Source: Candidatus Dadabacteria bacterium (GTDB taxonomy: Bacteria > Desulfobacterota_D > UBA1144 > Nemesobacterales > Nemesobacteraceae). Taken from it: a DNA stretch of 64,000 nucleotides. Made by a program: the position numbers and the translations under genes. Positions 25,261 to 44,212 of this stretch are shown piece by piece; the first letter of the stretch is position 1, and every line of letters begins with the position of its first letter. The stretch lies in contig VXTZ01000026.1 in assembly GCA_009837205.1 (NCBI GenBank), forward strand, positions 7,200 to 71,199, in the 5' to 3' direction. The notes beneath the pieces are model-generated. The model was not told the origin of the DNA. It saw nothing but the letters and a program-made list of their open reading frames with translations, and did no database searches.

Positions 25261-26592
25261 CTAACCTCCCTTCTTCGGCACCGGAAGTATCTCCTTCATC
25301 TCCGCTATGGAAACTGCCGGAAGAGTTTTCACAAACAGTAAGAAGAACATGAAGAACCACGCGAAACTTCCGATCGTTATGCCGGCCTCGACAAACGATA
25401 TCTTGTATATGCCCCACGCGCCGGGCTCAAAATCTCTTGAAAGCGATATCACGATGATATTGAACCGCTCGAACCACATCCCTACGTTTATCAGTATGGA
25501 AATGGCGAAAAGCGCCTTTATGTTTTTTCTAACCTTCTCCCACCAAAACGCTATCGGAACAACGCAGTTGCACACCACCATCGTCCAGTAGAAAAACGCG
25601 TACTCTCCAGTCATCCTGTACACAAACTGTCCCCATTCATAAGGACTTCCACTGTACCACGCCATGAAAAGTTCCGCCGCGTACGCGTAGGTGACTATGC
25701 AGGAGGTCAGAATTATGAGCTTCGCCATGCCGTCGTAGTTATCAAGCGTTATGTAGTCCTCGAGGTGGAAAATCTTCCTTATAGGGATGGTAAGCGTGAT
25801 AACCATCGCCAGTCCCGAGAAAATGGCTCCCGCAACGAAGTACGGGGGGAATATGGTTGTGTGCCATCCGGGAACGTTACCCATCGCGAAGTCCCAGGAC
25901 ACGACGCTGTGAACTGAGAGAACAAGCGGCGTGGCGAGAGCCGCGAAATAAAGATACGCCCTCGTGTAGTGAAGCCACTCCTTGTTTGAACCCTTCCATC
26001 CGAAGGAGAGAATCGAGTATATGATCTTTCTCGGAACTTCCTTCACCTTGTCCCTTATCGCCGCTATATCGGGAATCATTCCGACCACGAAAAACACCGA
26101 ACTCACCGTAAGATAAGTACCCACCGCGAACACGTCCCACACAAGCGGGGACTTGAAGTTTATCCACAGCTCCCTTGAATTCGGATATGGTATGAGCCAC
26201 AGGAAGTTCCATGGTCTTCCGAGGTGGATTATGGGGAAAAGTCCCGCCGTGAGAACCGCGAAGACCGTCATGGCCTCGGCGATTCTGTATATGGACATCC
26301 TGAACCTTGCGCGGAACAGATAAAGTATGGCCGAGATAAGGGTTCCCGAGTGCGCTATTCCAACCCAGAAAACAAAATCGGTTATGTAGACTCCCCAGAA
26401 AACCGGGTGACGATAGCCGGCAACTCCAAGTCCCGTAGCCACCTGATAGAAAAAGCACGTGACGCCGAGTCCCACGAGCGCCACCGTGGGAAGAAAAAGC
26501 GCCCACCATTTCGCAGACGGCTTGTCGACCATCCTGACTACATCTTCAGTTATTCTCGCGTAAGTTAAAGGTGTCTGCTGCGTCTGGCTCAT
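25261..26592 (-). CDS. actC: Alternative Complex III subunit ActC (NrfD-like quinol-interacting membrane subunit)
   Basis: ~440-aa polytopic NrfD/PsrC-family protein immediately after actB, with a 1-nt overlap. Confidence 0.85.
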   Translation of the reverse strand: MSQTQQTPLTYARITEDVVRMVDKPSAKWWALFLPTVALVGLGVTCFFYQVATGLGVAGYRHPVFWGVYITDFVFWVGIAHSGTLISAILYLFRARFRMSIYRIAEAMTVFAVLTAGLFPIIHLGRPWNFLWLIPYPNSRELWINFKSPLVWDVFAVGTYLTVSSVFFVVGMIPDIAAIRDKVKEVPRKIIYSILSFGWKGSNKEWLHYTRAYLYFAALATPLVLSVHSVVSWDFAMGNVPGWHTTIFPPYFVAGAIFSGLAMVITLTIPIRKIFHLEDYITLDNYDGMAKLIILTSCIVTYAYAAELFMAWYSGSPYEWGQFVYRMTGEYAFFYWTMVVCNCVVPIAFWWEKVRKNIKALFAISILINVGMWFERFNIIVISLSRDFEPGAWGIYKISFVEAGITIGSFAWFFMFFLLFVKTLPAVSIAEMKEILPVPKKGG

Positions 26593-29531
26593 TACACTCT
26601 TTCCTGTTTGACTTTCTTAAGATAGGTAATCGCGGGCTTGGTGTTTACCACTTCGAGAACCTTGTAGCCCCTATCGTCCTCGGACAGCACCGACGCCCTG
26701 CTCTTGTCGTCAAGCAGGTTGCCGAACACTATCGCATCGCTCGGGCAAGCCTGCTCGCAGGCCGTGAGAACCTCTCTGTCGCGAAGAAGCCTTCCTTCAT
26801 CCTTGGCGAGGTCCTTCCCGTAACTTATTCTCTGAACGCAGAAAGTGCATTTTTCCATGATTCCCTTCGACCTTACCGTCACGTCGGGATTAAGCTGCCA
26901 GTTAAGAGGCTCGGGGAACTTGTAGGTATACCAGTTGAACCTTCTTACCTTGTAGGTGCAGTTGTTCGCGCAGTACCTGGTGCCCACGCAGCGGTTGTAT
27001 ATCATGCCGTTTAGGCCCTCGTGGTTGTGGTAAGTCGCGAAAACCGGACACACGGGCTCGCAAGGGGCGTTTCCGCACTGCTGGCAGAGCATGGGCAGAA
27101 ATCTCACGTCAAGGCTTCCGTCGCTGTTTTTCTCAAAGAATCTCTCTATGCGAATCCAGTTCATCTCGCGGCGTTTCGCCATCTGCTTCTTCCCGACAAA
27201 GGGAATGTTGTTCTCTGCGGAACACGCGGTCACGCAGGCCCCGCAGCCGGTGCACTTGTTAAGGTCTATGGCCATTCCCCATCTGTATTTCGAGTATTCT
27301 ATTTCCGGGTAGAAGTCAGGGTGCTCCGAGTGGTGCGCTCCATGGGCGCCGTTATGATGGCCAATCTGGTCAAGAGCGATGGTCTTGGCGACGTGCCTGT
27401 CTCCCTGGCTCTTTGTGTACTGTGTCCTTACAAGCAGGTCTCTTTTCCTAAGGGATGAAACGTTCGCCTTGGTTGAAAGCAGCGAGGGTCCACCTGAAAG
27501 CGCATCGGTAGCCGCCGGCAGCAGAGCAAAGGGATTCACCCCTCTTCCCTTCGCGTACCTTCCGTAGGAAGTGTGTCCCTGCCCAATTGGAATGGCAATT
27601 GTATCCGGCCTTATTCCCTCATAGACGAAAACCTGTACCTCGAAACTTCCCCCGGGGGTATCAACCTTCACGTAAGAGCCATCCTCAAGGCCCATTTTGG
27701 CCGCGACGGCGGGATTTATCTCAAGCCACGAATCCCACACCGAAGTGGTAAGGGCATCGGGAAGTTCCTGAAGCCAAGGCTTGTTCGCCCCTCTTCCGTC
27801 AAGAAACCTGTGGGACGGATAAGCAATCAAGTGGAAATCTCCTTCTCCCCGGAACTGCGGATCGCTGAAAGAAACGGAACTTACCCCGGATGAAAGAGCG
27901 ACATTGACAGGAGCGGGGGTGGTCGTCACCGAACCTTTTACAAGAAGTTTTTTCCAGAATTTCTCGAAGCTTGTTCCGGGAGAGAGAGCCTCGGCCCTTT
28001 TCTTCCAGGCGCTTCTTAGATAGTCATAGTATTTTTTCTCTGCGAACGTGTTTTTAAGCGCCTCGACATTCTTTGAAACAGATATCAGCGTATCGCCCGC
28101 GGATTTGGTATTGAAAACTGGTCTCATGACGGGCTGAGTGATGCCGGTCACGCTCTTTTTCGGGCTGTAGTCTCCCCAGCTCTCAAAGGAAGTACTTTCG
28201 GGAAGTACGAGATGCGCCTTCTCGGAAGTCTCGTCAAGGAATGAAGAGAGGCTTACGACAAACGGCACTTTTTCAAGAGCCTCGGCAACTTTCAGTTCTC
28301 CCGGAAGCGTGAAAACCGGGTTCACGTTATGAACGATAAGAACTTCCACCTTGCCCGACCTCATTTCCTCCACCAGCTTCTTCATGTCACTGAAGCTGTT
28401 TGCATCCGAGATTGAAAGAGAATCGGAGAAATCAACCGTCTTGCCGATGTTTCCGGCAAGGTAGTTAAGTATGTTCACGGCAACCATGGTTTCGGTCGCG
28501 TTTGATCCCGTGTTGGCTGCTCCGCCCCCTATTGCCAGGCTTTTTGAAGACGCGAAGTCCCGGGCGATTTTCTCTATGGTGTCCGTGGACACGTCGGTGA
28601 GCGCTGCAACTTTTTTGGGCGTGTAGCCCGAAACCATTCTGGCTATCGGCCCCGGGGCAAACTTGTTAAGACCCTTTGAGATCATAACGTTGGCAATCCC
28701 GAGAGCAAGGTACTGCTCCGTGCCCGGTTTCGCCGCAACCCACGTATCGGCGTTTGAAGCGGTCATTCCGGAGCGCGGCTCTATATGAACGACCTGACCG
28801 GTTTTCCCGTGATCTATATCTCTTAGCTTTGAATATCCTATGGAGTTTGAAACCGCAGAAAGCCACGTTTCAAGGTAATCAGCCCCGAATGAGAGAAGGT
28901 AGTCCGCTTTGTCTATCCTGTAAGAGGGGATTTCGTCTCTTCCGAAAACAATTGAATTCGCCTTTCTGATGGGTTCATGGGAGAAAGTCTCGTAAACGTA
29001 ATGCTTTCCTCCAAGAGGCCTCAGGAACTCCGCCACGAACTTCGAGTAAGTTCCCGACACGTTGTTGCTCAGATAGACGATCTTCCCCGAGCCGAGAGAA
29101 TTTAATTTTTCTGTGAGTATCCCTTCACCCCTCTCCCAGCCTATGGCCTCGAGTCTCTGGGTTTCAGTGTTGCGTACAAGCGGGGAGCGGACCCTGTCGG
29201 GGTTGTAGAGACCCTGTAGGGAAGCCTGGCCCATGGCGCACGTCTTTCCCCTGTTTATAGGGCTCTCGGGATTGCCTTCAACCTTGATGGCCCGTCCCTC
29301 GCGGTTTTTCACCACGAGACCGCAGCCCGACGAGCACTCCCTGCAGGTCGTCGCGTAGAACTTGGGTACTCCGGGAATAATATTTTCAGGAGGAATAACG
29401 TAAGGGATTATCTGCTCCACCGGCTCCGAACAACTTCCGGCAACAGCTGCCGTACCGCCGGCTACCCCGATCACTTTCAGGAAATCCCTTCTCTTCATGC
29501 CGTTTTTTCCTTTATTTTCTTTCCGAGACAT
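26592..29531 (-). CDS. actB: Alternative Complex III subunit ActB (molybdopterin-oxidoreductase-like domain fused to 4Fe-4S ferredoxin domain), Tat signal
   Basis: Twin-arginine motif KRRDFLKV and an N-terminal CRECSSGC...C cluster motif. The C-terminal third has several CxxCxxCxxxC ferredoxin motifs. ATG at 29531 has GGAGGGG upstream. Confidence 0.85.
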   Translation of the reverse strand: MSRKENKGKNGMKRRDFLKVIGVAGGTAAVAGSCSEPVEQIIPYVIPPENIIPGVPKFYATTCRECSSGCGLVVKNREGRAIKVEGNPESPINRGKTCAMGQASLQGLYNPDRVRSPLVRNTETQRLEAIGWERGEGILTEKLNSLGSGKIVYLSNNVSGTYSKFVAEFLRPLGGKHYVYETFSHEPIRKANSIVFGRDEIPSYRIDKADYLLSFGADYLETWLSAVSNSIGYSKLRDIDHGKTGQVVHIEPRSGMTASNADTWVAAKPGTEQYLALGIANVMISKGLNKFAPGPIARMVSGYTPKKVAALTDVSTDTIEKIARDFASSKSLAIGGGAANTGSNATETMVAVNILNYLAGNIGKTVDFSDSLSISDANSFSDMKKLVEEMRSGKVEVLIVHNVNPVFTLPGELKVAEALEKVPFVVSLSSFLDETSEKAHLVLPESTSFESWGDYSPKKSVTGITQPVMRPVFNTKSAGDTLISVSKNVEALKNTFAEKKYYDYLRSAWKKRAEALSPGTSFEKFWKKLLVKGSVTTTPAPVNVALSSGVSSVSFSDPQFRGEGDFHLIAYPSHRFLDGRGANKPWLQELPDALTTSVWDSWLEINPAVAAKMGLEDGSYVKVDTPGGSFEVQVFVYEGIRPDTIAIPIGQGHTSYGRYAKGRGVNPFALLPAATDALSGGPSLLSTKANVSSLRKRDLLVRTQYTKSQGDRHVAKTIALDQIGHHNGAHGAHHSEHPDFYPEIEYSKYRWGMAIDLNKCTGCGACVTACSAENNIPFVGKKQMAKRREMNWIRIERFFEKNSDGSLDVRFLPMLCQQCGNAPCEPVCPVFATYHNHEGLNGMIYNRCVGTRYCANNCTYKVRRFNWYTYKFPEPLNWQLNPDVTVRSKGIMEKCTFCVQRISYGKDLAKDEGRLLRDREVLTACEQACPSDAIVFGNLLDDKSRASVLSEDDRGYKVLEVVNTKPAITYLKKVKQERV

Positions 29532-29545
29532 ATATCCCCTCCGGC

Positions 29546-30148
29546 CTAGTAATGGCAGGTCAGACAATCCTTAAGTTCGGTCTTATGTTCCTCGTTGTCG
29601 GCGTTTTCTTCGTGACACGATATGCAGAATCCCATCGTCAGGTCCTCTGCCTTGTGCACCACGTCCATCTTCTCAACTTCCCCGTGACAGGTGCTGCACT
29701 CAAATCCGCGCTTTATATGCCTTTTATGGTTAAAACGTACAAACTCCGGCATTCCCGCGGAGGTCGTGCCGTACATTCCGGTAACCTTTACCCACGGTAT
29801 CGGTTCCTGCCTGCGCCAATAACCCTTTACCTTGTTTATTTCCTCTCTTATGTTGATCGTCTGCCCCCCTTGCGTTGTGTACTCAACGTCCCTTCCGGCA
29901 ACATAAGAATGACATCCCATGCACTTCTGCACCGAGGGGATACCGGGATGGGGGGAAACTTCCGTGTAGCTGTGGCAGGTCTGACACTGTATCTGGTTGT
30001 CATCAGCGTGTATCTTGTGGCTGAAAAGAACCGGCTGCGCGGGGCCCTTGTCGCTACTCTCGGCAGTTTCCGCATAAAGGTAAAGACCCGCCGTCACAAG
30101 TAAAACGGTCATAGCGATACGCAAGAATCTGTGTGTATCTCTCTTCAT
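29546..30148 (-). CDS. actA: Alternative Complex III subunit ActA (pentaheme cytochrome c)
   Basis: Five CxxCH sites (CQTCH, CMGCH, CSTCH, CISCH, CLTCH) and an N-terminal membrane anchor. Confidence 0.85.
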   Translation of the reverse strand: MKRDTHRFLRIAMTVLLVTAGLYLYAETAESSDKGPAQPVLFSHKIHADDNQIQCQTCHSYTEVSPHPGIPSVQKCMGCHSYVAGRDVEYTTQGGQTINIREEINKVKGYWRRQEPIPWVKVTGMYGTTSAGMPEFVRFNHKRHIKRGFECSTCHGEVEKMDVVHKAEDLTMGFCISCHEENADNEEHKTELKDCLTCHY

Positions 30149-38668: not shown

Positions 38669-38823
38669 ACAGCGAAGATACTCAACACGAGGTATGGGAT
38701 TAAGGGCCGTCGGCCCAGGCTCTTGTTAGATTCCTGCAGGAAATAAAATCCCACCACGCCGAAACCGAAGACCTCACCGGCCTCGATCACATCATTGACA
38801 CGGTACTTTCTTGTGTGGTAGGG

Positions 38824-38846
38824 TAAATGATAATATTTCTCATTTA
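38824..38846 (+). promoter_or_regulatory. Fur-family (Zur-like) operator, copy 1: TAAATGATAATATTTCTCATTTA
   Basis: 7-9-7 palindrome (TAAATGA...TCATTTA) containing the Fur-type AATGATAAT core. It lies just downstream of TTGACA (38795..38800) and directly upstream of the small ORF. Confidence 0.55.
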
Positions 38847-38855
38847 CCCATGCAG

Positions 38856-39140
38856 ATGAGCAGAACATTTTCCTTATCGCTTACAATCGCCTTTCTGGGA
38901 GCGCAGATGCTCTCCTTTGCCCATGCGGCCGAGTACGGTTCCTGGGAACACGAGCATGAGGGAATTGCCTGCGAGATATGCCTGAGCGCCAAGTATCAGG
39001 ACTTCTCAAGTCCCGACGCCGCGAGCGGGCCCAGTGTTCTTCGCCACGCGGAATACGTCTCTCAGTCACCCGCTAGCGCTACCATCGTTCGGGACAATTA
39101 CGATGAGGGAATTACCCGCGGACCTCCCATCCCATCCTGA
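38856..39140 (+). CDS. 94-aa exported/anchored His-Cys protein (EHEHE...CEIC...RGPP), paralog 1
   Basis: N-terminal hydrophobic segment LSLTIAFLGAQMLSFAHA, then EHEHEGIACEICL and a C-terminal ITRGPPIPS. May belong to the DUF2946-like class (not verified). Start chosen by analogy with paralog 2. Confidence 0.5.
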   Translation: MSRTFSLSLTIAFLGAQMLSFAHAAEYGSWEHEHEGIACEICLSAKYQDFSSPDAASGPSVLRHAEYVSQSPASATIVRDNYDEGITRGPPIPS

Positions 39141-39163
39141 CTCTGTAAACAGACTTTTTATTC

Positions 39164-39181
39164 CCCGCGCATACGTGCGGG
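39164..39181 (+). terminator. conserved hairpin CCCGCGC-ATAC-GTGCGGG (possible attenuator/partial terminator), copy 1
   Basis: 7-bp stem (one G-U pair) followed within 6 nt by a T-rich run AATTTTCTTTT. Identical in copy 2. Confidence 0.3.
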
Positions 39182-39218
39182 CAGCGGAATTTTCTTTTCA
39201 AACTTTAAGGAGGAAAAA

Positions 39219-40751
39219 ATGAATATATTGCGTTTCGCGGTAATAACTGCGTTTTTTGCCGTCTTGCCGTTTTCTCATATCCCCGCCTTCGCCGCTTCTG
39301 ATCAGGAGATAGAAGCTTTGAAGAAGGAAATACAGGAAATGAGGTCAGAATATGAGAACCGGATTTTAAAGATGGAGGAAAAACTTGCCGAGATGAAGAC
39401 TGCGGCAACCGTGGATAAAACGAAAACGACTTACTCAAAGAGCAGGGACAGCGTCTACCCCGGCAGAGCCATTTACAACAGCACCCTTAATCCTTCAATC
39501 GGAGCGGTACTGGGCGGACGCTTCGCCGCATTCTCTTCTGACGAGGGCGAGATTCCAGGGTTTGTCCTAGGACACGAAGGAGAACGCGGAGCGGAAGGAA
39601 TTTCCCTCGGAGAAACCGAACTTAATCTTTCGACAAGTGTTGACGATAAATTCTACGGCCACATAACCACGGCCCTTGCAGACCATGGAGACGGGGTTGA
39701 GATAGAGCTTGAGGAGGCATACGTGGAAACCCTTCCAGGTCTCGGGCTTCCAACGGGAGCGACGATAAGGATGGGACGCGCGTTCTGGACTTTTGGATAC
39801 CTGAACGAGCATCACGCCCACGCTGACGATTTCGCCGATCGTTCCCTGCCTTACAGGGTGTACCTTGACAAGGGCTTTAATGATACCGGAGCGCAGATTT
39901 CATACGTGCTTCCAACAGATTTCTATGTTGAGGCGGGAGGCGGTATTTTCCGCGGAGACGATTTCCCGTTTGCGGGAGCTGAGGGTAGCGACATAAACTC
40001 ATTCAGTGCCTTCCTGCGGGTAGGCGGTGACATAGGAAATAATTCATCCTGGAGAATCGGGGGTTATTTCCTTGACGGAGAGGCAAGCGGTCGCGCCGGC
40101 GGACACGGACATGGACACGAAGACGAGCATGCCCATATGGATGACCACATGGATGATCACGATGACGACCACATGGATGATCACGATGATGACCACATGA
40201 ATGACCACGATGATGACCACATGGATGACCACGCGGGTGAACACATGGATGACCACGATGATGACCACGCGGATGAACATGGACATGAGGAGTTCTTCAG
40301 CGCCGGCATGTTTACGGGCGACACGAGGCTTTACTCGGTTGATTTTCGCTACGTTTGGGCCCCCACTGGAAACATCCGCCAAAAAGAGGTGCTTCTCCAG
40401 GGTGAGTATTTCTGGCGTGAAGAAGAAGGCATCTACACTCTTGAGGAAGGAGGCGAGGTCCACGAAGAGCACCTCGACGGAGGAAGCCACGGCTGGTATG
40501 CACAGGGGGTTTTCAAGTTCTCGCCGAAATGGAGAATCGGAACCCGCTATTCCCAGATCTACTCTCCTAAGGATTCAGGGATAGATCATGACCCCTACGC
40601 GGTAGCAGTCATGGGAGACTGGTCAAACAGTGAATTCTCGCGCATACGCCTTCAGTACAACTACGAGAAACTGGGTGAGGACCTGAGCGACAACCAGATC
40701 CTGCTCCAGTACATAATGAGCATAGGCGCACACGCCGCGCATAAATACTAA
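39219..40751 (+). CDS. porin-like outer-membrane protein with N-terminal coiled coil and internal His/Asp-rich repeat loop
   Basis: Signal peptide MNILRFAVITAFFAVLPFSHIPAFA and a heptad-like SDQEIEALKKEIQEMRSEYENRILKMEEKLAEMK. Beta-strand-like alternation runs through the rest. AAGGAGG RBS upstream. The coiled coil plus barrel layout resembles the phosphate-selective-porin (O/P) family. Confidence 0.55.
   Translation: MNILRFAVITAFFAVLPFSHIPAFAASDQEIEALKKEIQEMRSEYENRILKMEEKLAEMKTAATVDKTKTTYSKSRDSVYPGRAIYNSTLNPSIGAVLGGRFAAFSSDEGEIPGFVLGHEGERGAEGISLGETELNLSTSVDDKFYGHITTALADHGDGVEIELEEAYVETLPGLGLPTGATIRMGRAFWTFGYLNEHHAHADDFADRSLPYRVYLDKGFNDTGAQISYVLPTDFYVEAGGGIFRGDDFPFAGAEGSDINSFSAFLRVGGDIGNNSSWRIGGYFLDGEASGRAGGHGHGHEDEHAHMDDHMDDHDDDHMDDHDDDHMNDHDDDHMDDHAGEHMDDHDDDHADEHGHEEFFSAGMFTGDTRLYSVDFRYVWAPTGNIRQKEVLLQGEYFWREEEGIYTLEEGGEVHEEHLDGGSHGWYAQGVFKFSPKWRIGTRYSQIYSPKDSGIDHDPYAVAVMGDWSNSEFSRIRLQYNYEKLGEDLSDNQILLQYIMSIGAHAAHKY
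40098..40289 (+). repeat. in-frame tandem repeat encoding GGHGHGHEDEHAH(MDDHDDDH)n...ADEHGHEE
   Basis: Roughly 24-nt units (cacatggatgatcacgatgacgac and variants) are repeated about six times. They lie inside the porin-like CDS at about aa 294..357. Confidence 0.85.
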
Positions 40752-40928
40752 GAGCAACCGTAGCGTGAAACGCTACCTGGTTTTTCTCTCTACCCTCATG
40801 CCGGGGCTGCTTTTCGCGGCCCCGGCATATTTTTTGGCAGCTGGCCCAGGGAATCGGTGGAACTGACGGCCCGAAGTACATACACAAGTACATACATCAT
40901 TGACATCGCACTTTTTCGTGTGGTAGGC

Positions 40929-40951
40929 TAAATGATAATATTTCTCATTTA
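40929..40951 (+). promoter_or_regulatory. Fur-family (Zur-like) operator, copy 2: TAAATGATAATATTTCTCATTTA
   Basis: Identical 23-mer to copy 1. Confidence 0.55.
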
Positions 40952-40960
40952 CCCATACAG

Positions 40961-41245
40961 ATGAGCAGAACATTTTCCTTATCGCTTACAATCGCCTTTC
41001 TGGGAGCGCAGATGCTTTTCTTTGCCCATGCGGCCGAGTGCGGTTCCCGGGAACACGAGCATGAGAGAGTTTCCTGCGAAATCTGCCTGAACGCCAAGTA
41101 TCAGGACTTCTCAAGTCCCGGCGCCACGAGTGAAGTCCGTGTTCTTCACCGCGCACAGCACGTCCCGCAGCCGCTCGCTGACGTTATCTTCGTTCGGGAC
41201 ACTTGCGAAGCGGGAATTACCCGCGGACCTCCCATCTCCTCCTGA
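40961..41245 (+). CDS. 94-aa exported/anchored His-Cys protein (EHEHE...CEIC...RGPP), paralog 2
   Basis: MSRTFSLSLTIAFLGAQMLFFAHAAECGSREHEHERVSCEICL...ITRGPPISS. Same length as paralog 1. Confidence 0.5.
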   Translation: MSRTFSLSLTIAFLGAQMLFFAHAAECGSREHEHERVSCEICLNAKYQDFSSPGATSEVRVLHRAQHVPQPLADVIFVRDTCEAGITRGPPISS

Positions 41246-41267
41246 GCTGTAAACAGACTTTTTATTC

Positions 41268-41285
41268 CCCGCGCATACGTGCGGG
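41268..41285 (+). terminator. conserved hairpin CCCGCGC-ATAC-GTGCGGG, copy 2
   Basis: Identical to copy 1 and followed by the same T-rich run and AAGGAGG RBS. Confidence 0.3.
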
Positions 41286-41322
41286 CAGCGGAATTTTCTT
41301 TTCAAACTTTAAGGAGGAAAAA

Positions 41323-42234
41323 ATGAATATATTGCGTTTCGCGGTAATAACTGCGTTTTTTGCCGTCTTGCCGTTTTCTCATATCCCCGCTTTCGCCGCT
41401 TCTTATCAGAAGGTAAAAGTATTTGCCTGCGAACCGGAATGGGCGGCACTGGCCCAAGAAATCGGCGGTGACAAGGTGGAAGCGTTTTCAGCCACCTCGG
41501 CCACACAGAATCCACACTACATAAGGGCACGCCCAAGCCTGATATCCAAAGTGCGCAAAGCCGATCTGCTGATCTGCTCGGGCGCAAGTCTTGAGGTAGG
41601 CTGGCTTCCGGTTCTGCTCAAGAAGGCAAGTTCTGATCTCCAGCCCGGCTCCGCCGGTTACCTTATGGCTGCAAATCTGGTCACCATGCTCGAAGTACCG
41701 GTTGTGGTCGACCGCAGCATGGGAGATATACATCCGGAAGGCAATCCCCACTTGCACCTGAATCCGTACAACCTGATAATTGTAGGCGAAGTGCTTGCCG
41801 ATCGCCTTTCGGAAATCGACCCTGGGACCGCCTCTTTTTACAAAAACCGATTCCAGGATTTTTCATCACGCATGCAAAAGGCCATCTCCCGGTGGGAATC
41901 CGAGGCCGCCGAGCTTAAAGGGAAGCCGGTGGTGGTTCATCACAAATCGTTTAGTTATCTGATTGACTGGCTCGGAATGAAAGGAGTGGGGGCGCTTGAA
42001 CCGAAACCCGGAATTCCCCCCACAGCTTCTCACCTGAAGAATCTGCTGCAGCAGTTAAGAAACAGCCCGGCGGATGTGATTATCCGTACCCCTTACGATC
42101 CGGCTGGCGCGAGTGAATGGTTCTCGGAGAAAACCGGGACAAGGGCAGTCGTGCTTCCTTACACCATTGGCGGTGACAGCCAGAGCGGCGACCTGTTCGC
42201 GCTGTTTGACAGGATTATAGCTTTGTTAAAATAG
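41323..42234 (+). CDS. znuA: metal (Zn/Mn-type) ABC transporter substrate-binding protein, ZnuA/TroA family
   Basis: DIHPEGNPHLHLNP motif with cluster-9 SBP layout. The signal peptide is identical to that of the porin-like protein. No long His-rich loop. Confidence 0.75.
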   Translation: MNILRFAVITAFFAVLPFSHIPAFAASYQKVKVFACEPEWAALAQEIGGDKVEAFSATSATQNPHYIRARPSLISKVRKADLLICSGASLEVGWLPVLLKKASSDLQPGSAGYLMAANLVTMLEVPVVVDRSMGDIHPEGNPHLHLNPYNLIIVGEVLADRLSEIDPGTASFYKNRFQDFSSRMQKAISRWESEAAELKGKPVVVHHKSFSYLIDWLGMKGVGALEPKPGIPPTASHLKNLLQQLRNSPADVIIRTPYDPAGASEWFSEKTGTRAVVLPYTIGGDSQSGDLFALFDRIIALLK

Positions 42235-42241
42235 ACATATA

Positions 42242-43003
42242 ATGTTAAGCGGTGAACTTCTGGAAATCATCGGGCCGGCAGTGGCTGCGGGCCTCATGAT
42301 TGCGCTTACCCACGCTCCCTTGGGCATCGAGGTGCTGCGCCGCGGCATCATCTTCATTGATCTTGCGGTGGCGCAGATTGCGGGACTCGGGCTTGTGGTC
42401 GGCAACATGTTTATCCATGATCCTTCTCCGTTGCTGATCCAGTTCATGGCTCTTAGCTGCGCGGTCGCGGCAGGGCTGTTTTTCCGCAAGGTGGAAACGG
42501 CGATGCCCGAGCGACAGGAAGCGGTCATAGGGTGCACTTTCGTACTTGCCGCATCGCTGGCGCTTCTGCTGCTGGCCGACCACCCCCACGGCGGAGAAGA
42601 GGTAAAGCACCTGCTTTCGGGACAGATGCTGTTTGTGACATGGACAGACGTGGCGAAACACTCGCCCATTTACGCGTTGATACTGCTGGTCTGGTTCTTC
42701 AGGCCCGAGGTGCGGAACAACATTGGATTTTACCTGCTCTTCGCCCTTGCCATCACTTCGTCGGTTCAGCTGGTCGGCGTCTATGTAGTCTTTGCGAGCC
42801 TCATACTGCCGGCTCTGGCCGCCGTACGCGTAAGACAGCCTCATCTTGTCGCATGGCTCTGCGGGGTGGTGGCGCTTCTGTCAGGCATCGCCTTCGCCGT
42901 AGCGTTCGATATGCCCGCCGGACCGATTATTATCCTGTCATACACCGCGACGGCCCTGACTATACGAGGGGTCAGGATGGCAAACCGGGATCAGAGAACT
43001 TAA
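42242..43003 (+). CDS. znuB: metal ABC transporter permease (ABC-3 family, ZnuB-like)
   Basis: ~250-aa polytopic protein with ABC-3-like segments (GIIFIDLAVAQIAGLG, VYVVFASLILPA), located 7 nt after znuA. Confidence 0.75.
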   Translation: MLSGELLEIIGPAVAAGLMIALTHAPLGIEVLRRGIIFIDLAVAQIAGLGLVVGNMFIHDPSPLLIQFMALSCAVAAGLFFRKVETAMPERQEAVIGCTFVLAASLALLLLADHPHGGEEVKHLLSGQMLFVTWTDVAKHSPIYALILLVWFFRPEVRNNIGFYLLFALAITSSVQLVGVYVVFASLILPALAAVRVRQPHLVAWLCGVVALLSGIAFAVAFDMPAGPIIILSYTATALTIRGVRMANRDQRT

Positions 43004-43093: not shown

Positions 43094-44212
43094 ATGAGAC
43101 AATTTGATGTTGTCATTGTTGGAGCCGGTCCGGCAGGGATAGGGGTTGCCGCTATGCTTAAAGATCTGGGTATAAAGCGAATGATTGTTCTTGAGAGAGA
43201 AGAAGTCGGCGCGACCTTCGACAAATGGCCGAAGGAAATGCAACTCTTAACCCCCTCATTTACCACTAATTTTTATGGTCATCTTGACCTTAATGCGGTT
43301 ATATCCGGAACCTCGCCAGCATATATGCTTCAAAAGGAACACCCTACCGGCAAAGAGTATGCGCTGTATTTAAGAACTGTATCAGAATATTTTGATTTGC
43401 CGGTTATGGAACATACAAATGTAGAGGAGGTACTTTATTCTGAAGGCTCTTTTAAGGTTCACATCACTGAAGGAAAGCCGATAGAGTCTCGCTTTTTGAT
43501 TTGGGCGGCCGGAGAATTTCAATACCCGAATACAAATTCCATTTCAGGTGCTGAACTGTGTTTGCATAACAGCCGGGTGAAAAGCTGGGAACAGGTTGAA
43601 GGCGATGAAATTTATATTATCGGCGGTTATGAGAGTGGCATTGATGCAGCCATCCATTTAAGTCGATTAGGCAAGAAGGTTCGTGTATTAGATCGCGATG
43701 CGCGTTGGAGTAGAAAAACAACTGACCCAAGTGAAAACTTATCACCTTTTACGTTGGAGAGATTGAAGCAAGAAATAATTTATAACAGGATTGAGCTTGT
43801 TGGTAAATCCATGGTTAGGGAGATAAGGTTGGAGCAGGACAAGTATTTGATTTATGTCAGAGGCAAATCATTACCTTATCAAAGTGCCACACCACCCATT
43901 TTGGCAACAGGATTTAAAAGTAGTTTGGTCGTCATTAAAGAGTTGTTTGATTGGGAAAAGGAGAAAGATTACTGTTTGCTGAATGAGCAGGATGAATCAA
44001 CCAGAACTCCTGGATTGTTTCTCGTTGGTCCACAAGTTCGTCATGATGATCTTATTTTTTGTTTTATTTATAAGTATCGGCAGAGGTTTGGTGTTGTCGC
44101 TAATGCAATTGGAAAACGATTGGGTATGGATACAACGCTGCTTGAGCCATATCGTAATGAAGGTCTCTACCTAGATGATTTGAGCTGCTGCGGAGAGGAG
44201 TGTGTTTGCTGA
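43094..44212 (+). CDS. FAD/NAD(P)-binding oxidoreductase (two dinucleotide-binding motifs) with Cys-rich C-terminal tail
   Basis: VVIVGAGPAGIG (FAD) and IYIIGGYESGIDAA (NAD(P)) motifs. The tail is DDLSCCGEECVC. AGGAGA RBS upstream. The gene is AT-richer than its neighbours. Confidence 0.65.
   Translation: MRQFDVVIVGAGPAGIGVAAMLKDLGIKRMIVLEREEVGATFDKWPKEMQLLTPSFTTNFYGHLDLNAVISGTSPAYMLQKEHPTGKEYALYLRTVSEYFDLPVMEHTNVEEVLYSEGSFKVHITEGKPIESRFLIWAAGEFQYPNTNSISGAELCLHNSRVKSWEQVEGDEIYIIGGYESGIDAAIHLSRLGKKVRVLDRDARWSRKTTDPSENLSPFTLERLKQEIIYNRIELVGKSMVREIRLEQDKYLIYVRGKSLPYQSATPPILATGFKSSLVVIKELFDWEKEKDYCLLNEQDESTRTPGLFLVGPQVRHDDLIFCFIYKYRQRFGVVANAIGKRLGMDTTLLEPYRNEGLYLDDLSCCGEECVC

Follow-up and report, generated by a model that had tools for sequence, protein, structure and literature searches.

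Zinc entry across the outer membrane without a TonB receptor is usually credited to unspecified general porins. In the Zur-regulated zinc receptor ZnuD of Neisseria, clusters of His, Asp and Glu in extracellular loop 3 have been described as a zinc 'fishing net', and the loops HSHEYDDCHAD and HDDDNAHAHTH are proposed to fish zinc and hand it to a deeper site; the periplasmic binding protein ZnuA likewise uses a His/Asp loop (PMC4557270). MnoP of Bradyrhizobium is cited in PMC6011978 as a high-affinity Mn2+ importer of the outer membrane. Regulation by a short upstream open reading frame (ORF) is described for CruR (Bordetella Bp2923, DUF2946), a copper-sensing leader in which a RAPP arrest motif controls Rho-dependent termination (PMC9426467). 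Here, these systems are compared with a gene module found in a 64 000 nt stretch of contig VXTZ01000026.1 of a Candidatus Dadabacteria bacterium, referred to below as the window. The module is built around a 510 aa outer-membrane protein that carries a His/Asp tandem repeat, which we refer to as the pore. It is probably a porin-type, TonB-independent outer-membrane channel for a divalent metal, most probably Zn2+, in which the repeat forms a capture loop and which is under Zur and CruR-like control; we put the probability of this reading at roughly 0.55.

The pore gene (39219..40751, + strand) contains the repeat in codons 294-357 (nucleotides 40098-40289), which read GGHGHGHEDEHAHMDDHMDDHDDDHMDDHDDDHMNDHDDDHMDDHAGEHMDDHDDDHADEHGHEE. 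The initial annotation, made from the letters alone, had described an (HMDDHDDD)n tract of about 24 nt units at this position, and the sequence is exactly as it stated. Tandem Repeats Finder reports an array at 40140-40276 with a period of 24, 5.7 copies, 86 % matches and a score of 204, with a 12 nt period nested inside it, and a separate repeat search of the window left the register unchanged. The unit of the array is HMDDHDDD. There are 18 His among the 64 residues and the i+4 spacing occurs 13 times, far above chance. An expansion specific to this assembly was also considered. The window sequence is present in sponge metagenomes, and a contig from another study (X4, from Logan) covers the entire array with three substitutions and no indel, while a contig from run X1 is identical to the window across it; these contigs show that the array is genuine and was not expanded by the assembly. 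The tract is also a true insertion, because the site is empty in three proteins of the family (P0094, P0096 and P0100).

The structure of the pore was modelled with AlphaFold2 using a 65-sequence family alignment (A1) as input. The model (mean predicted local distance difference test score, pLDDT, 77; predicted template modelling score, pTM, 0.71) comprises a signal peptide (aa 1-26), one long helix (aa 28-66, the coiled coil) and 16 beta strands (aa 93-503). The protein had been called porin-like, with a signal peptide, an N-terminal coiled coil and barrel strands, and this description agrees with both the model and the Foldseek comparison with the PDB, where 233 matches were found at E<=0.001 with porins at the top: Vibrio cholerae OmpT (5e-12) and OprP (2.6e-11), then AlgE, PorB and OmpF, with the values for OmpT, OprP, OmpF and PorB lying between 1e-12 and 1e-9. 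The predicted protein has the features of a 16-strand porin, namely a signal peptide, an even strand number, a long L3 and a terminal Tyr.

In the model, residues 297-353, between strands 9 and 10, are disordered (pLDDT <50), and the side of the membrane on which the repeat lies can be read from strand parity. The N-terminus is periplasmic in all known outer-membrane barrels. With the N-terminus taken as periplasmic, the His/Asp tract is predicted to be extracellular loop L5 because the strand 9-10 connection is an odd-to-even one. The alternation of short turns (3, 9, 5, 4, 9, 2 and 4 residues) with longer loops (21, 4, 33, 16, 70, 12, 11 and 2 residues) agrees with L5 being outside.

Two further sites in the predicted barrel carry conserved His residues. 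The loop after strand 5 (aa 189-222, 39783..39884, + strand) is long, includes two short helices and in the model corresponds to porin L3. It is a candidate constriction and metal site, and by analogy with L3 of 16-strand porins it would lie inside the lumen. In the family alignment N196, E197, H199, H201, D203, D204, F205, D207 and R208 are invariant, and the HxH motif is found in distant superfamily members too. The C-terminal GAHAAHKY (40725..40748, + strand), at the predicted periplasmic end of the barrel, includes invariant G503, H505 and H508 and ends with an aromatic residue. This is a superfamily signature: of 149 distant representatives, 107 end in GxHxxHx[FYW]-COOH. Residues Y45, R48 and E53 of the coiled coil are also conserved across the pore family.

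The pore resembles ZnuD in that it is, by prediction, a Zur-regulated outer-membrane protein for zinc entry with a flexible extracellular loop rich in His, Asp and Glu. However, ZnuD has 22 strands and a plug and is TonB-energized, whereas the pore is a 510 aa protein with a 16-strand porin fold. The window protein and the 65 aligned members have no match to any TonB-dependent receptor or plug family in Pfam, which is consistent with the TonB-independence that the initial annotation had suggested. The loop also differs from those of ZnuD in being a long, strain-variable tandem repeat. It is comparable in composition to the His-rich loop of ZnuA, being also acidic, His-rich and disordered, but it sits on the outer-membrane protein, and no such loop is present in the ZnuA-like partner. 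OprP/OprO (PF07396) and the BBP2/OmpL-like proteins (PF07642) share the 16-strand barrel (OprP with the Foldseek value above), and the pore family is distinguished from them by the N-terminal coiled coil, the HxH of L3, the C-terminal HxxH and the His-rich L5. The likeness to MnoP is one of concept, an ion-selective, starvation-induced diffusion channel, and the two were compared by function only. FapF is laid out in a similar way, with a periplasmic coiled coil at the N-terminus joined by a linker to an outer-membrane barrel. However, the match to the NCBIfam model for FapF is weak (14.5 bits against a cutoff of 700 bits) and covers only the coiled coil (aa 10-77), and the barrel is porin-like.

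A word-indexed search recovered more than 2124 homologues of the pore, all unnamed or 'hypothetical', and an exhaustive profile search of representatives at 50 % identity found 448 at E<=1e-30 and 1870 at E<=1e-10. The homologues from the word-indexed search come from metagenome-assembled genomes of Candidatus Dadabacteria (filed by NCBI under Thermodesulfobacteriota), Alpha- and Gammaproteobacteria, Poribacteria and Spirochaetia, and many are from sponges. Pfam and NCBIfam scans of the window pore and the 65 aligned members assigned no family. The matches to Phage_scaffold, the FapF N-terminus, ZrgA and ZIP His-rich models are coiled-coil or His-rich noise, and the only results of a sequence search of the PDB were a coiled coil and a false match of His-rich sequence to pyridoxal kinase (6su9). 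The initial annotation had named the porin O/P family for a profile search, and neither the window pore nor any of the 65 members matches PF07396 at E<=1; a single distant relative reaches 15 bits, below the cutoff of 20.9. The window pore does not match the BBP2/OmpL-like model (PF07642), and distant superfamily members score 19-23.1 bits, below the cutoff of 26.2, which suggests remote kinship only. PcoB/CopB (PF05275) was not matched by the window pore or the 65 members. As matches to porin models in Pfam are absent or below threshold, the pore family is a remote branch of the porin superfamily that has no Pfam or NCBIfam model. The source names of the members of the pore cluster are all either 'hypothetical' or 'YabA'. 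In GenBank the near-identical allele P0142 (MXW43903.1/MYB25982.1) is entered as 'DNA replication initiation control protein YabA', almost certainly a mis-annotation caused by the coiled coil.

Nearly every member of the pore family has a His/acidic segment at the L5 site, flanked by GGGHGHGH on one side and HGH-EFFS-G-F on the other. In 105 proteins, the inserts range from 18 to 121 aa (median 66) and consist largely of E (20.5 %), D (17.4 %), H (16.2 %) and G (16.1 %), with 0.2 % K and no Cys. Nearest His neighbours lie at i+4 in 44 % of cases and at i+2 in 23 %, and the number of His residues is correlated with insert length (r = 0.94). Tandem repeats were found in 58 of 76 pore genes, nearly all at the L5 site, where their periods range from 12 to 54 nt and are all multiples of three; the units differ between genes. 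The repeats are independent expansions that converge on one composition. In P0060, which is 46 % identical to the window pore, the HMDDHDDD unit recurs in 7.9 copies with different codons.

Copy number had been expected to vary between strains, and this was found. P0142 and P0154 correspond to the window pore less exactly one HMDDHDDD unit, and P0001 has one additional GH. In the cluster at >=90 % identity to which these proteins belong, lengths range from 488 to 516 aa and every difference is within the loop; in the adjoining cluster the range is 489-531 aa. On/off phase variation by frameshift was considered and rejected, as every repeat period at the L5 site is divisible by three; the frameshifts in P0045 and P0048 resemble errors of assembly. 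Some members carry additional segments. P0060 and P0123 (L002:8001-9671) have a second His/Asp-rich segment in the periplasmic linker from the coiled coil to the barrel, and in P0235 the extracellular loop that follows holds another His-rich insert. The L002 locus has a Zur-box-like motif upstream and lacks the ZnuA and permease neighbours described below.

A hypervariable loop of this kind could also be an essentially neutral or diversifying low-complexity surface loop with no role in metal binding, in which slippage-prone DNA at a tolerant site would be kept variable by phage, predator or host pressure, but we consider this improbable. In its favour, slippage does generate the repeats, both length and sequence of the loop vary strongly even inside clusters of at least 90 % identity, and surface loops of outer-membrane proteins are commonly phage receptors. 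Against it, expansions that arose separately, in other units and other codons, all arrive at H, D, E and G with HxxxH spacing and exclude K, R, C and hydrophobic residues, His count follows insert length, and HMDDHDDD itself recurs with other codons in a protein 46 % identical; neutral slippage or antigenic diversification alone would not be expected to impose such a constraint.

The assignment of a metal rests in part on the genes that follow the pore gene. The order pore, ZnuA-family binding protein, ATP-binding cassette (ABC)-3 permease was found in about 76 of 83 loci and spans Dadabacteria, Alpha- and Gammaproteobacteria, Poribacteria and Spirochaetia. In the window, the binding protein (304 aa, 41320..42234, + strand) scores 134.3 bits to PF01297 (cutoff 29), and its best NCBIfam match is AztC. 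H66, H144 and H208 are invariant and were aligned by HMMER with the PsaA ligands H67, H139 and E205. A His as third ligand is typical of zinc-type sets and a Glu of manganese-type sets. The binding protein, with three His, therefore has the zinc-type ligand set, not the manganese-type one with Glu, and the zinc cargo proposed in the initial annotation gains support from these positions. That the ZnuA homologue lacks a His-rich loop was likewise confirmed: the window protein has at most 3 His in any 30 aa, and among 80 binding proteins of the family none has such a loop (at most 6 His in any 30 aa). The permease (253 aa, 42242..43003, + strand) is ZnuB/AztB-like, with 68.8 bits to PF00950 and matches to AztB and ZnuB.

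A motif scan of the 64 kb window found no ABC ATPase gene, and an ATPase-like ORF is present within 6 kb in only 5 of the 83 loci. The ATPase beside the zur gene of locus L042 is UrtE/LivF-like and not a ZnuC.

Zur control had been proposed in the initial annotation. In the window, a promoter-like element (38795..38824, + strand) consists of TTGACA (38795-38800), an 18 nt spacer and an extended -10, TGgTAGGGT (38816-38824). It was missed by a simple promoter scan, its -10 having 3 of 6 matches, and TTGACA with TGnTAnnnT is conserved at the corresponding position in 23 relatives from Dadabacteria. A Fur-family, Zur-box-like palindrome, TAAATGATAATATTTCTCATTTA (operator 1, 38824..38846), overlaps the end of the -10 and is a 9-3-9 inverted repeat. 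A repeat search and motif scan found an identical operator 2 at 40929..40951, and these are the only two copies in 64 kb, where none is expected. Each directly follows a promoter-like element of the form TTGACA-18 nt-TGnTAnnnT. The consensus TAAATGAnAAyATTTCTCATTTA was found in 23 of 24 Dadabacteria relatives, with flanks that drift. Compared with GAAATGTTATANTATAACATTTC, which we take to be the enterobacterial Zur box consensus, the window operator matches at 15 of 22 positions and shares the AAATG...CATTT arms and the 23 nt geometry.

The evidence from relatives is stronger. In the 53 loci from outside Dadabacteria, 7-mers of the Zur half-site reach a density of 4.08 per kb within 260 nt upstream, compared with 0.073 per kb elsewhere, a 56-fold enrichment, and at least 16 of 22 matches to the consensus were found in 19 of 53 upstream regions and in none of 1016 control windows. 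Relative to that assumed consensus, the proteobacterial relatives clearly have a Zur box in the promoter. Moreover, three loci (L034, L042 and L075) include a divergent, adjacent zur-like gene that scores 99-103 bits to the NCBIfam model for Zur and about 30 to that for Fur. On this sequence evidence Zur control has good support at the level of the family and is plausible for the window promoter. Every prediction of the initial annotation that could be put to a test thus held.

Between the operator and the pore gene, the module is headed by a short ORF (upstream ORF 1, 38850..39140, + strand) that encodes a leader peptide resembling CruR and Rhodobacter CutF (DUF2946), and a second ORF of this type (upstream ORF 2, 40961..41245, + strand) precedes the binding-protein gene, with CEIC, 45 residues and RGPPISS. 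Both encode a Sec signal (in ORF 1 ending in SFAHA, followed by AE), EHEHEG, CEIC, a spacing of exactly 45 residues and RGPP three residues before the stop. They thus agree with CruR and CutF in having an export signal, a CxxC, an R[AG]PP motif near the C-terminus at a spacing of about 45 residues and the first position in the operon. An equivalent ORF was found in at least 45 of the 83 loci. The spacing from CxxC to the RGPP/RAPP-type motif is 45 in 28 of 31 upstream ORFs that have a CxxC, and the tail after the arrest motif is 3 residues in 42 of 47. Those of Alphaproteobacteria have HxHxHDEHGxC in place of CxxC, with the single Cys at the equal 45-residue distance.

There are also differences from CruR. 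The Dadabacteria ORFs have RGPP, not RAPP, and additionally an HxHxH motif, and those in the window head a pore-ZnuA-permease module under Zur-like control, not copper genes. Neither window ORF matches the PF11162 hidden Markov model (HMM) at E<=1. In the leader RNA from the upstream ORF to the pore gene, a GC hairpin and a possible stem sequestering the Shine-Dalgarno sequence were no better than shuffled sequences (z = -1.31). From their sequences, the window ORFs may respond to zinc, although the class to which they belong is known for copper alone.

The presence of two operators and two upstream ORFs is explained by a duplicated cassette of approximately 527 nt that includes promoter, operator, upstream ORF, leader and the first ~32 codons of the following gene (copy A, 38789..39315, + strand; copy B, 40894-41419). 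The copies are 86 % identical over the upstream ORF part and 97 % identical over the leader and signal part. As the duplication included the signal codons, the binding protein bears the signal peptide of the pore, MNILRFAVITAFFAVLPFSHIPAFAAS. The duplication is common to the nearest relatives (L004-L013, L015, L016, L027 and L029) and is absent from the more distant Dadabacteria (L014 and L017-L026), in which there is a single operon. The upstream ORFs, the duplication and the lack of an ATPase gene had not been noticed in the initial annotation. Between the pore gene and the second cassette, a strong hairpin resembling an intrinsic terminator (40798..40828, + strand), with a 13 bp stem, 10 GC pairs and ATTTTTT, divides what was one operon in the ancestor into two units under similar control. 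All four genes of the module are covered by metatranscriptome contigs (92-97 % identity) from samples of coral and sponge, which suggests, as far as assembled contigs can, that it is expressed in situ.

Two other ORFs in the window were recorded. Following the permease gene, a Pyr_redox_3 flavoprotein of 372 aa with a Cys-rich tail, DDLSCCGEECVC, is encoded at 43094-44212 (+ strand). It keeps this place in the closest Dadabacteria relatives (88-97 % identity) and may belong to the pore/permease unit. A 991 aa ORF at 26592-29567 (- strand) includes a short His-rich run, HHNGAHGAHHSEH.

The analysis establishes the sequence, the fold, the family, the synteny, the motif enrichment and the polymorphism. 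From this combination we infer that the loop binds metal, that the metal is zinc and in which direction it is transported, as well as the path of its hand-off, the formation of trimers and the logic of regulation. The pore, the three-His ZnuA-like binding protein and the ABC-3 permease would form one metal-uptake module. L5 would be a disordered, polyanionic tentacle with a His at every fourth residue, capturing scarce metal ions at the cell surface and concentrating them at the mouth of the pore. Ions would then move by ligand exchange from L5 to the HxH/acidic site of L3 in the pore, and on to the C-terminal HxxH on the periplasmic side and the binding protein, the His-rich element being on the pore instead of on the ZnuA-like protein. 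Slippage that adds or removes 24 nt units makes loop length, and presumably capture capacity, variable between strains. Expression may be controlled at two levels, first by a Zur-type repressor at the site overlapping the promoter, and second by the exported CruR-like leader with its putative metal ligands (HxHxH and CxxC) and RGPP ribosome-arrest motif.

A broader claim, that this is the founding example of a dedicated family of TonB-independent zinc porins, each with a four-part module, a slippage-tunable antenna that replaces the ZnuA loop, a relay through L3 and the C-terminus, control by Zur and a zinc-sensing CruR-like peptide, and a permease that has no ATPase gene of its own, is put forward tentatively; such a module would be common among uncultivated bacteria from the sea and from sponges.

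Several points weigh against a zinc-uptake pore. Support for all members of the pore family is computational, from sequences and predicted structure, and the extracellular placement of L5 depends on the strand parity of a predicted model. The loop appears dispensable for basic function in view of the members that lack it. The inner-membrane step is incomplete as encoded, an ATPase gene being missing from the window and nearby in so few of the other loci. The window operator agrees with the Zur consensus only in part (the 15 of 22 positions noted above) and its inner half-sites are equally Fur-box-like, and tblastn with E. coli Fur and Zur sequences found no Fur or Zur gene in the window. The remaining points concern the metal: the characterized relatives of the leader peptides, CruR and CutF, respond to copper, HMDDH includes a Met, a ligand of the Cu(I) type, and one insert-less relative has a copper-related neighbourhood. 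In that relative (L003:4569-7488) the module directly follows a bufferin-type cluster (BufA1, MbnB/HvfC and DoxX) and a pair of genes for an extracytoplasmic function (ECF) sigma factor and NrsF, and this context ties the module to copper or metal-stress genes.

The alternative that fares best is accordingly one in which architecture and mechanism are the same and the metal is copper (or Ni, Co, Mn or Fe(II)), the module serving copper acquisition and being headed by a genuine copper-responsive CruR. The features that define CruR are all present in the upstream ORF and CruR and CutF are copper sensors; Met is found in 39 of the 105 inserts; the bufferin-type context is as just described; and the window operator is indistinguishable from a Fur box. 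However, the Fur family does not include copper regulators, and in Proteobacteria it is Zur boxes and zur genes that go with the module. The ZnuA-family binding proteins, which form cluster A-I, are known for Zn, Mn and Fe and not for Cu, and the three-His set is of the zinc type. The loops lack Cys, and most inserts are without Met. DUF2946 itself is not confined to copper: one member, CzcI, belongs to a Zn/Co/Cd efflux system, and another, from Caulobacter, has a Zur box. Copper is still a candidate for the sensed metal, but the Zur and three-His evidence favours zinc, and a copper module is in our view unlikely.

A role other than capture was also weighed for the loop, namely that it is a metal-dependent gate that, when loaded, collapses onto or into the pore and closes it, or a surface buffer that sequesters excess toxic metal; either would shield the cell at high metal levels. 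Gating was already named as an alternative in the initial annotation. Loop 3 of ZnuD collapses with zinc present (PMC4557270). A tract of 64 aa is enough to reach the lumen, and the insert-less members indicate that permeation does not need the loop. On the other hand, control by a repressor and an attenuator is typical of uptake systems induced by starvation, and there would be little expression in excess metal. The free scaling of the insert from 18 to 121 aa and its variable sequence suit capture capacity better than a fitted plug. We regard a gate or buffer as rather doubtful and retain the zinc-capturing pore as the preferred reading.

No porin described as specific for zinc came up in phrase searches of the open literature, which likewise gave no name for the pore family and nothing relevant on Dadabacteria and zinc. 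What would be new is the combination of a substrate-specific porin with a His-rich capture loop, each of which is known separately. The pore family is a concrete candidate for a zinc porin, given its conserved His motifs, its link to ZnuA/ZnuB-like genes and its association with Zur boxes and zur, and loop length across its members, which runs from zero to about 120 residues, provides a natural allelic series for the antenna. The arrest-peptide mechanism of CruR and CutF would be extended to a zinc-type uptake operon and, if true, the upstream ORF would be the first non-copper member of the CruR regulatory class. Annotation would gain directly, as the family is without a Pfam or NCBIfam model and at least one member is mis-named. 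For the sponge symbionts themselves, tandem-repeat slippage acts on a putative metal-binding surface loop, and this may matter for metal economy in the host.

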